Positions 2 to 381 of a DNA stretch of 382 nucleotides are shown piece by piece. Position 1 is the stretch's first letter. Each line of letters opens with the position of its first letter. The notes beneath the pieces are model-generated. The model searched no databases, was not told where the DNA came from, and was given only the letters and a program-made list of their open reading frames with translations. Source of the stretch: Escherichia coli (GTDB lineage Bacteria > Pseudomonadota > Gammaproteobacteria > Enterobacterales > Enterobacteriaceae); the NCBI RefSeq assembly GCF_003334385.1, contig NZ_QOWN01000186.1. One strand, given 5' to 3'. The position numbers and the translations under genes are program-made.

Positions 2-77
2 GGGTCGTTAGCTCAGTTGGTAGAGCAGTTGACTTTTAATCAATTGGTCGCAGGTTCGAATCCTGCACGACCCACCA
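2..77 (+). tRNA. lysW: tRNA-Lys, anticodon UUU (window 35-37), 76 nt with encoded CCA (75-77)
   Basis: Read directly: 7-bp acceptor stem GGGTCGT/ACGACCC, D-arm GCTC-AGTTGGTA-GAGC, anticodon arm GTTGA-CTTTTAA-TCAAT (one G-U pair), T-arm GCAGG-TTCGAAT-CCTGC, discriminator A, CCA. Matches the E. coli-type tRNA-Lys(UUU) from memory. The paralog symbol is a best guess from recalled K-12 spacer lengths; lysT is equally possible because the Lys copies are identical. Confidence 0.95.
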
Positions 78-80
78 GTT

Positions 81-103
81 TTAACATCGAAGACAGATGT
101 TAA
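81..103. other. Perfect interrupted palindrome TTAACATC-N7-GATGTTAA, a potential stem-loop 4 nt after the tRNA-Lys CCA
   Basis: 81-88 (TTAACATC) is the exact reverse complement of 96-103 (GATGTTAA), with a 7-nt loop GAAGACA (89-95). The sequence is directly visible; the function is unknown. Confidence 0.6.
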
Positions 104-157
104 GCGTGTAGGATAACGTTGCGTCAGCAGCGGCCCGTAGGGCGAGCGAAGCGAGTC

Positions 158-175
158 ATCCTGCACGACCCACCA
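158..175 (+). repeat. 18-nt perfect copy of the tRNA-Lys 3' end (ATCCTGCACGACCCACCA: T-arm 3' strand, acceptor 3' strand, discriminator, CCA) inside the Lys-Val spacer
   Basis: Window 158-175 is identical to window 60-77 and to 364-381. The two bases before it (156-157, TC) differ from the tRNA (58-59, GA). It is followed by CT (176-177), as the genuine tRNA-Val CCA is followed by CTC. Confidence 0.9.
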
Positions 176-190
176 CTAATGACGGTGGGT
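168..190 (+). other. Inverted repeat ACCCACC / GGTGGGT with a 9-nt loop, a potential hairpin that would sequester the CCA-containing tRNA-Lys 3' fragment
   Basis: 168-174 (ACCCACC) pairs with 184-190 (GGTGGGT); the loop is 175-183 (ACTAATGAC). A second GGTGG follows at 193-197. No U-tract follows, so it is not a typical intrinsic terminator. Confidence 0.4.
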
Positions 191-226: not shown

Positions 227-302
227 GGGTGATTAGCTCAGCTGGGAGAGCACCTCCCTTACAAGGAGGGGGTCGGCGGTTCGATCCCGTCATCACCCAC
301 CA
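227..302 (+). tRNA. valZ: tRNA-Val, anticodon UAC (window 260-262), 76 nt with encoded CCA (300-302)
   Basis: Read directly: acceptor stem GGGTGAT/ATCACCC, D-arm GCTC-AGCTGGGA-GAGC, anticodon arm CCTCC-CTTACAA-GGAGG, T-arm GGCGG-TTCGATC-CCGTC, discriminator A, CCA. Matches the E. coli-type tRNA-Val(UAC) from memory. The paralog symbol is tentative; valT is the alternative. Confidence 0.95.
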
Positions 303-305
303 CTC

Positions 306-381
306 GGGTCGTTAGCTCAGTTGGTAGAGCAGTTGACTTTTAATCAATTGGTCGCAGGTTCGAATCCTGCACGACCCACCA
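306..381 (+). tRNA. lysY: tRNA-Lys, anticodon UUU (window 339-341), 76 nt with encoded CCA (379-381)
   Basis: Identical in sequence to the tRNA-Lys at 2-77. It starts 3 nt (CTC) after the CCA of the tRNA-Val. The paralog symbol is tentative; lysW is the alternative. Confidence 0.95.

Follow-up and report, generated by a model that had tools for sequence, protein, structure and literature searches.

A perfect inverted repeat lies just downstream of the CCA end of a tRNA-Lys gene in the 382-nucleotide stretch of Escherichia coli DNA analysed here (the window), and its position raises the question of whether it works as an RNA structure in the tRNA precursor, as a binding site in the DNA, or not at all. 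The earlier note on this DNA had entertained the first two readings side by side, a hairpin in the trailer of the tRNA-Lys precursor and a 23-bp dyad bound by a dimeric protein. Our findings argue with high confidence for the RNA structure, place the hairpin at the head of an RtT-like cassette that the note did not recognize, and lead us to a tentative proposal for its part in tRNA 3'-end processing.

The window and its inverted repeat

By its sequence, the window is identified as the lysW-valZ-lysY portion of the E. coli lysT tRNA operon. ARAGORN finds three tRNA genes in it (Table 1), and their coordinates bear out the 149-nt distance that the earlier note had given from tRNA-Lys to tRNA-Val. 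This spacer agrees with the K-12 lysW-valZ spacer at 148 of 149 positions (99.3%), and no identical spacer occurs among the complete E. coli genomes in our collection, where the best match is likewise 99.3%. The sole difference from K-12 is G130, which is an A in K-12 and in all of the best-matching E. coli genomes, and which converts the U119-A130 pair of an inner core hairpin to U.G.

The repeat search returned the palindrome as it had been described, with 8-nt arms that are 100% complementary across 7 nt and that begin at the fourth base past the mature tRNA end, leaving GTT between the CCA and the repeat. In 5000 dinucleotide shuffles of the spacer, a perfect repeat of at least 8 bp with a loop of 3-10 nt arose in 0.8%, as the suspicion that the dyad is not accidental would have it, and in 1.8% when loops of 3-20 nt were allowed. 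A chance origin of the palindrome was ruled out by these shuffles together with the conservation described below. Folded as RNA, a check that the earlier note had proposed, positions 78-110 reach -8.2 kcal/mol (z = -2.5), a stability equalled by 5 of 200 shuffles, and a partition-function calculation on the full precursor gives the eight hairpin pairs probabilities of 0.8-1.0, with U80.G104 as a ninth, weaker pair (about 0.45). The spacer as a whole folds into four hairpins that abut one another (z = -4.3), and the only segments predicted to be unpaired in the full precursor are ACCAGU at 74-79 (unpaired probabilities 0.6-0.99) and the last seven bases before tRNA-Val, 220-226.

A hairpin directly past a tRNA gene recalls the true lysQ terminator, and the element might accordingly be read as an intrinsic terminator or attenuator inside the operon. 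We regard this as extremely improbable, as the stem is followed by GCGUGUAGG in place of a U-run, two of its eight pairs are G-C, and the operon is transcribed as a single RNA of ~1100 nt (PMC4176162). A promoter/terminator scan found neither a promoter nor a terminator in the window.

Table 1. Features of the window (positions count from its first nucleotide)
Feature	Position	Strand	Basis
tRNA-Lys(UUU), equivalent of K-12 lysW	2..77	+	ARAGORN; Rfam tRNA, 79.2 bits; K-12 match
U-rich linker, G-U-U	78..80	+	Unpaired probabilities; class-A conservation
Hairpin 5' arm, TTAACATC	81..88	+	Repeat search, fold, covariation
Hairpin loop, GAAGACA	89..95	+	Sequence unconserved; 5-9 nt in relatives
Hairpin 3' arm, GATGTTAA	96..103	+	Repeat search, folds, covariation
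RtT-like core	105..157	+	Rfam RF00391; RNAalifold consensus of 21 cassettes; MFE structures
Core strand CGTGTAGGAT, predicted to pair with 158-167	105..114	+	RNAalifold, MFE
Small hairpins within the core, predicted	117-122/127-132; 133-136/140-143	+	RNAalifold, MFE
Pseudo 3' end, exact 18-nt tRNA-Lys copy; right boundary of the cassette	158..175	+	D2 repeat; cassette-less strains
Hairpin ACCCACC (168-174)/GGTGGGT (184-190), predicted to sequester the pseudo-CCA end	168..190	+	MFE structures
tRNA-Val(UAC), equivalent of valZ	227..302	+	ARAGORN; K-12 comparison
tRNA-Lys(UUU), equivalent of lysY	306..381	+	ARAGORN; K-12 comparison

An RtT-like cassette around the hairpin

The hairpin of the earlier note stands, but the note overlooked its setting, an RtT-like cassette closed by a second copy of the tRNA 3' end. 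Positions 9-175 match the Rfam RtT family (RF00391) with 52.8 bits against a gathering score of 45 (E = 1.2e-9), a covariance-model score that admits the cassette to the family, though the palindrome itself lies outside the modelled part, in a 44-nt stretch that the model handles as an insertion. The 5' part of the model is aligned onto the real tRNA body with several non-canonical pairs. Besides tRNA and RtT, no Rfam family was found in the window, the remaining matches falling far under threshold. The architecture is also that of RtT, in that the end of the unit copies the 3' end of the upstream tRNA within a tRNA operon; the last 18 nt of tRNA-Lys (ATCCTGCACGACCCACCA, 60-77) recur exactly at the pseudo 3' end (direct repeat family D2). 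On these sequence grounds we assign the hairpin as the first module of a 98-nt RtT-like cassette, 78-175, which comprises the hairpin, a GC-rich core and the 18-nt copy of the tRNA-Lys 3' end. Within this cassette the hairpin counts as an accessory helix, one that the Rfam model does not include and that is specific to one positional class of lysine units.

Alignment of the K-12 operon reveals that all four long spacers and the lysQ trailer are units of this kind, each with a variable segment of ~25 nt past the CCA, a conserved core (ACGTGAAGGATAACGTTGC..GCAACGGCCCGNAGGGCGAG..GAGTC) and then the copy of the tRNA 3' end, and it is in the variable segment that the palindrome lies. K-12 lysY is followed by a second cassette whose stem is identical and whose loop is different.

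An invariant strand at 105-114, CGTG(A/T)AGGAT, complements ATCCTGCACG, which is present both in the real T-arm/acceptor and in the pseudo end, and the core strand could in principle pair with either copy of ATCCTGCACG, so that it may act as a switch or favor misfolding. In the place of the class-A hairpin, class B and C cassettes (defined below) have GGTGG, the complement of CCACC. In cassette-free strains, GGTGGGT is found 8 nt beyond the true CCA of lysW, where it might compete with the acceptor stem.

Positional classes of cassette

Relatives were collected by scanning a single genome from each species for pairs of tRNA-Lys 3' ends spaced 65-95 nt apart. The scan returned at least 120 loci, many of them plain tandem tRNA-Lys genes (Xenorhabdus, Photorhabdus, Providencia, Idiomarina and Moraxella), which were filtered out, and at least 68 matches with an RtT-like core. 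The variable segment falls into classes that track operon position. Among the matches listed, 20 of the 29 copies of class A, which has the TTAACATC-type hairpin, stand behind a tRNA-Lys that comes directly after a tRNA-Val; 17 of the 23 copies of class B (ATCGYT..GGTGG..) lie between the first tRNA-Lys and tRNA-Val; and class C lies between two tRNA-Lys genes. Hairpins at the class-A position are weak in class B and C cassettes. The cassette considered here is the one found behind tRNA-Lys genes that follow tRNA-Val in the lysT operon of Enterobacteriaceae, and since class A tracks operon position, comparisons within it are comparisons of orthologous spacers and of lysW/lysY paralogues. The occurrence of class-A cassettes after Val-Lys pairs only 2-3 nt apart suggests that the duplicated unit was Lys-cassette-Val. 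Such a gap, CC or CTC, separates tRNA-Val from the next tRNA-Lys at 303-305 of the window and at 1423-1424 of a second E. coli locus, L001.

Pairing is conserved on the transcribed strand

The evidence that bears most directly on whether the repeat is an RNA or a DNA element comes from the divergence of its two arms among class-A relatives. The set comprised 27 distinct class-A sequences from orthologous or paralogous spacers of about 12 enterobacterial genera (Escherichia, Enterobacter, Citrobacter, Kluyvera, Klebsiella, Raoultella, Pluralibacter, Silvania, Pseudescherichia, Superficieibacter and others) and extended a 22-sequence version. The earlier note had named uncompensated, pair-breaking changes in orthologous spacers as the outcome that would tell against a hairpin. 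Instead, 98.8% of the 243 cells of the 9-bp helix are paired in a set of which 21 sequences were chosen by the pattern of the 5' arm and six were added by hand after being seen to fold (a Superficieibacter copy, three E. coli variants, C. sedlakii and S. confinis), and four of the nine pairs carry compensated, double-sided changes (U-A to C-G twice, C-G to U-A, and A-U to G-C; 10 cells). When the partner was slid by 1-3 columns as a control, 33-45% of cells were paired. None of 500 shuffles reached the observed pairing, number of double-change cells or covariation score, although these statistics overstate independence because the sequences are related and some are paralogues open to gene conversion. 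RNAalifold, unprompted, recovers the helix from 21 cassettes. The compensatory and wobble pairs in excess of the controls are those of a conserved structured RNA element.

One-sided changes are equally telling. At the inner pairs all of them, in 25 cells, produce G.U, and there are no A.C cells, A.C being what a wobble pair of the opposite strand would look like. We estimate that these data represent at least five or six independent compensatory events and at least seven independent G.U events, and with that many G.U events and no A.C the asymmetry is unlikely under neutrality. Folds of the plus strand lie within -5.6 to -10.1 kcal/mol for all 28 variants, while those of the minus strand fall to -1.6 to -4.4 kcal/mol for 11 of the 28. 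The loop is free in both sequence and length (5-9 nt), as exemplified in K-12 by GAAGACA in lysW-valZ and AAACTCA in lysY-lysZ, and polymorphisms within E. coli conform to the same pattern, A84 to G yielding a G.U pair and a one-base insertion falling in the loop. Based on the paired cells, the compensatory changes, the G.U without A.C and the free loop, we infer with high confidence that pairing is selected on the transcribed strand and that the element is an RNA hairpin rather than a protein-binding DNA dyad. Folding and covariation together thus support the first of the two readings in the earlier note, the RNA-level hairpin in the trailer of the tRNA-Lys precursor.

The second of those readings fared differently. 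In the window sequence alone the repeat does resemble a dyad operator, with perfectly symmetrical 8+8 half-sites about a 7-bp centre, as a dimeric DNA-binding protein might require. In its relatives, however, the arms covary and no half-site is fixed, the spacing between the arms ranges over 5-9 nt, and conservation is strand-asymmetric, with minus-strand pairing mostly lost in the 11 variants noted above; nor is there a promoter-like site nearby. We therefore rejected the DNA operator on covariation, variable spacing and strand asymmetry and consider it very improbable. The same three properties argue against simple homogenization of a palindrome and favor the transcript as the level at which the element is maintained.

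A more elaborate DNA-level account treats the palindrome as a by-product with no RNA function, whose perfection is maintained by template-switch correction of quasi-palindromes in combination with gene conversion among the repeated tRNA-Lys units. Template switching at quasi-palindromes can generate double changes that only appear compensatory, and the cassettes are repeated, are flanked by identical tRNA sequence, and do recombine, as seen in their variation in presence and copy number. This process yields Watson-Crick complements, however, and not many persistent G.U states. Neutral transitions predict A.C to be about as frequent as G.U, against the 25 and none observed over at least seven independent events, and the stems stay paired across genera while the loops diverge freely. 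On balance we judge this account distinctly improbable.

Natural strains with and without the cassette

E. coli ST540, CFSAN061770 and 23CRST009 lack precisely this cassette between lysW and valZ, and their CCA runs directly into CTAATTACGGTGGG... In strains PK12 and K-15KW01, which have the same seven tRNA genes with spacers of 35, 51, 48 and 33 nt, all four cassettes are missing. A 37-nt hairpin query found a match in 4093 of 5426 complete E. coli genomes, leaving about a quarter without one; matching genomes have 1-4 copies, almost always beside tRNA-Lys. From these comparisons the cassette appears to behave as an optional unit that is lost (or gained) by recombination between the 18-nt repeats. 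The existence of natural E. coli strains without cassettes means that the hairpin is dispensable and that its benefit, if any, is small or conditional. Furthermore, tRNA-Lys trailers that have a short spacer and lack a cassette show no structure (mean -2.1 kcal/mol, z +0.2, compared with -5.4 kcal/mol for trailers with a cassette), so the hairpin belongs to the cassette and not to tRNA-Lys as such, and a general need of tRNA-Lys trailers for such a hairpin was ruled out.

On a looser and improbable reading, the hairpin and its RtT unit would together propagate themselves as a cassette directed at tRNA 3' ends, and the hairpin would be required to keep the unit harmless. A mobile-element origin via plasmids or phages was rejected, as no true copies were found in either collection. 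The matches in the plasmid collection are megabase E. coli and Klebsiella records, i.e., mislabelled chromosomes, and those in the phage collection are two Salmonella chromosomal contigs; both represent misfiled chromosomal sequence.

The annotated 'RtT sRNA' unit past lysQ is present in 0, 1 or 2 copies depending on the E. coli strain (2235-2420 of locus L001; 1533-1845 of locus L125). Each of these copies ends in a tRNA-Lys 3' end, which is followed by its own copy of the terminator.

Processing of the tRNA-Lys trailer

Between the acceptor stem and the hairpin, the only stretch predicted to be unpaired is ACCA (74-77) with the G-U-U that follows. Here A76-G78↓U79-U80-U81 fits the RNase E motif RN↓WUU (PMC5222698), and RNase E is described in PMC2190699 as usually cutting 1-3 nt past the CCA. 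The linker, R-U-U/C-U, is kept in all 27 class-A spacers and the helix starts at a fixed 2-3 nt past the CCA; 26 of these spacers have A-R↓U-U-U, a candidate RNase E site that is predicted to be unpaired, and one has A-A↓U-C-U.

The processing of this operon has been studied directly (PMC4176162). Its tRNAs are separated by RNase P, and the lysine pre-tRNAs retain trailers of up to 150 nt, which the authors assume to be shortened by RNase II/PNPase and finished by RNase T. With RNase E inactivated, maturation of tRNA-Lys is almost normal (processed fraction 0.89 vs 0.95), and RNase E cleaves within the long spacers only if RNase P has been inactivated; the lysT-valT-lysW product of RNase E cutting does not hybridize to a lysW-valZ spacer probe (PMC4176162). 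One tRNA 3'-end sequencing paper gives no lysine-specific values; PMC3378859 pools tRNA-Lys. Taken together, the normal-like maturation without RNase E and the existence of strains without the hairpin indicate that a role in processing, if any, is non-essential, be it the block to RNase T or RNase PH or the positioning of RNase E that the earlier note had considered.

Another reading takes the hairpin for a mini-helix that RNase P would recognize and cut at its 5' base, 2-3 nt past the CCA, in the way that this enzyme is reported to remove the terminators behind lysV/lysQ and leuX. RNase P can remove the lysV hairpin by a cut between U and G at just this distance from the CCA, and processing in the operon is RNase P-dependent and RNase E-independent (PMC4176162). 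In our reading, the lysV-type U↓G cut coincides with the 5' base of a 13-bp extended terminator helix (L001 2235-2270), and the fixed start of the class-A helix fits as well. If true, a single ribozyme would be responsible for the cuts on either side of each tRNA-Lys of the lysT operon, 5' as well as 3', which would explain the dependence on RNase P and the slight dependence on RNase E in spite of structured spacers of 130-150 nt. The class-A helix, however, is AU-rich and only 8-9 bp long, position +1 is U in place of G, and no RCCA follows the 3' arm. We consider recognition by RNase P quite unlikely.

The hairpin might instead function after processing, as the 5'-terminal stem-loop of a released RtT-like spacer RNA generated by a cut just 3' of the CCA, in which one to three unpaired bases followed by a stem would shield the RNA from 5'-end-dependent RNase E and so lengthen the life of what would be a functional RtT-type RNA. 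A short linker followed by a stem is the geometry of protective 5' stem-loops such as that of the ompA 5' UTR, the hairpin travels with a cassette that scores as RtT, and tyrT RtT is described as an RNA released during tRNA processing. Spacer probes of the operon, on the other hand, led to no report of an abundant small spacer RNA in the wild type (PMC4176162), and neither the tyrT RtT units nor the class B and C lysine cassettes have a comparably strong hairpin. Protection of a released RNA is in our estimation unlikely.

A proposed role in 3'-end processing

We tentatively favor a model in which the hairpin serves as a structural delimiter or insulator for the 3'-end processing of tRNA-Lys and is carried on an RtT-like cassette. 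The hairpin would fold the first ~25 nt of the trailer onto themselves, and in doing so it would prevent this stretch from pairing into the tRNA or into the neighboring core, the 5' strand of which is complementary to both copies of the tRNA 3' end. The ACCA and the 2-3 U-rich bases after it would then be the sole unpaired window in which removal of the trailer must end. This could occur through an endonuclease cut one base past the CCA, where the sequence fits the RNase E motif, or through 3' exonucleases that stall at the hairpin and hand over to RNase T. Within the model, the hairpin probably has a role in shaping the 3' tail of the precursor.

Every E. coli genome has annotated RtT elements, which have been known since 1991, and a link of RtT to the stringent response has been drawn. 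The hairpin is the clearest covarying helix in the lysine-type units and therefore offers a defined, mutable handle on RtT, for which strains that naturally lack one or all of the cassettes provide isogenic-like controls. It also bears on the published lysT model, in which trailers of 130-150 nt made of stacked hairpins have to be removed and RNase E is not required. Should its effect prove unmeasurable, the hairpin would represent an RNA structure conserved for harmlessness and not for a positive function.

Comparison with known tRNA-linked elements

The leuX, lysV and lysQ Rho-independent terminators, which are removed by RNase P or PNPase, share with the window hairpin a stem-loop a few bases past the CCA, and according to PMC4176162 and PMC2811032 RNase T or PH can complete the end only once stem-loops of this type are gone. 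Unlike them, the window hairpin is operon-internal, AU-rich and 8-9 bp long, has no U-tract and does not terminate transcription. The terminator helix of the lysQ trailer (L001 2235-2270) has room for an extension to 13 bp (GUAAAAAAGCGCC/GGCGCUUUUUUGC); the extended helix begins at the G that follows the reported U↓G cut by RNase P and has the canonical -1 U/+1 G geometry.

Conserved non-tRNA sequence is also excised from polycistronic tRNA transcripts in the case of the sRNA sponges 3'ETS-leuZ, the 5' end of which is made by RNase E (PMC5222698), and the metZWV ITS. Those RNAs act via a conserved single-stranded pairing sequence and Hfq, whereas the window hairpin conserves only its pairing, its loop and linker being unconserved beyond U-richness.

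The closest relative remains RtT RNA itself (RF00391; rttR, the tyrT-linked 178-bp repeats of E. coli). Like the window cassette, it is found downstream of a tRNA gene with which it shares a transcript, has the GC-rich core AACGTTGC..GCAACGGCCCGNAGGGCGAG.., closes with a duplicate of the 3' end of that tRNA and occurs in tandem repeats. The lysine units differ from it in being shorter and in having no inner tRNA-like arm of the tyrT kind, and the tyrT units differ in having no equivalent strong hairpin right past the CCA; a search of the tyrT units for a class-A-like hairpin found a 6-bp stem past the first tRNA-Tyr and none of note past the second. The tyrTV locus (L129 4150-5085, minus strand) has four annotated RtT units about its two tRNA-Tyr genes, and the 6-bp hairpin, ACCACA-GCGA-TGTGGT, lies 7 nt past the CCA of the first.
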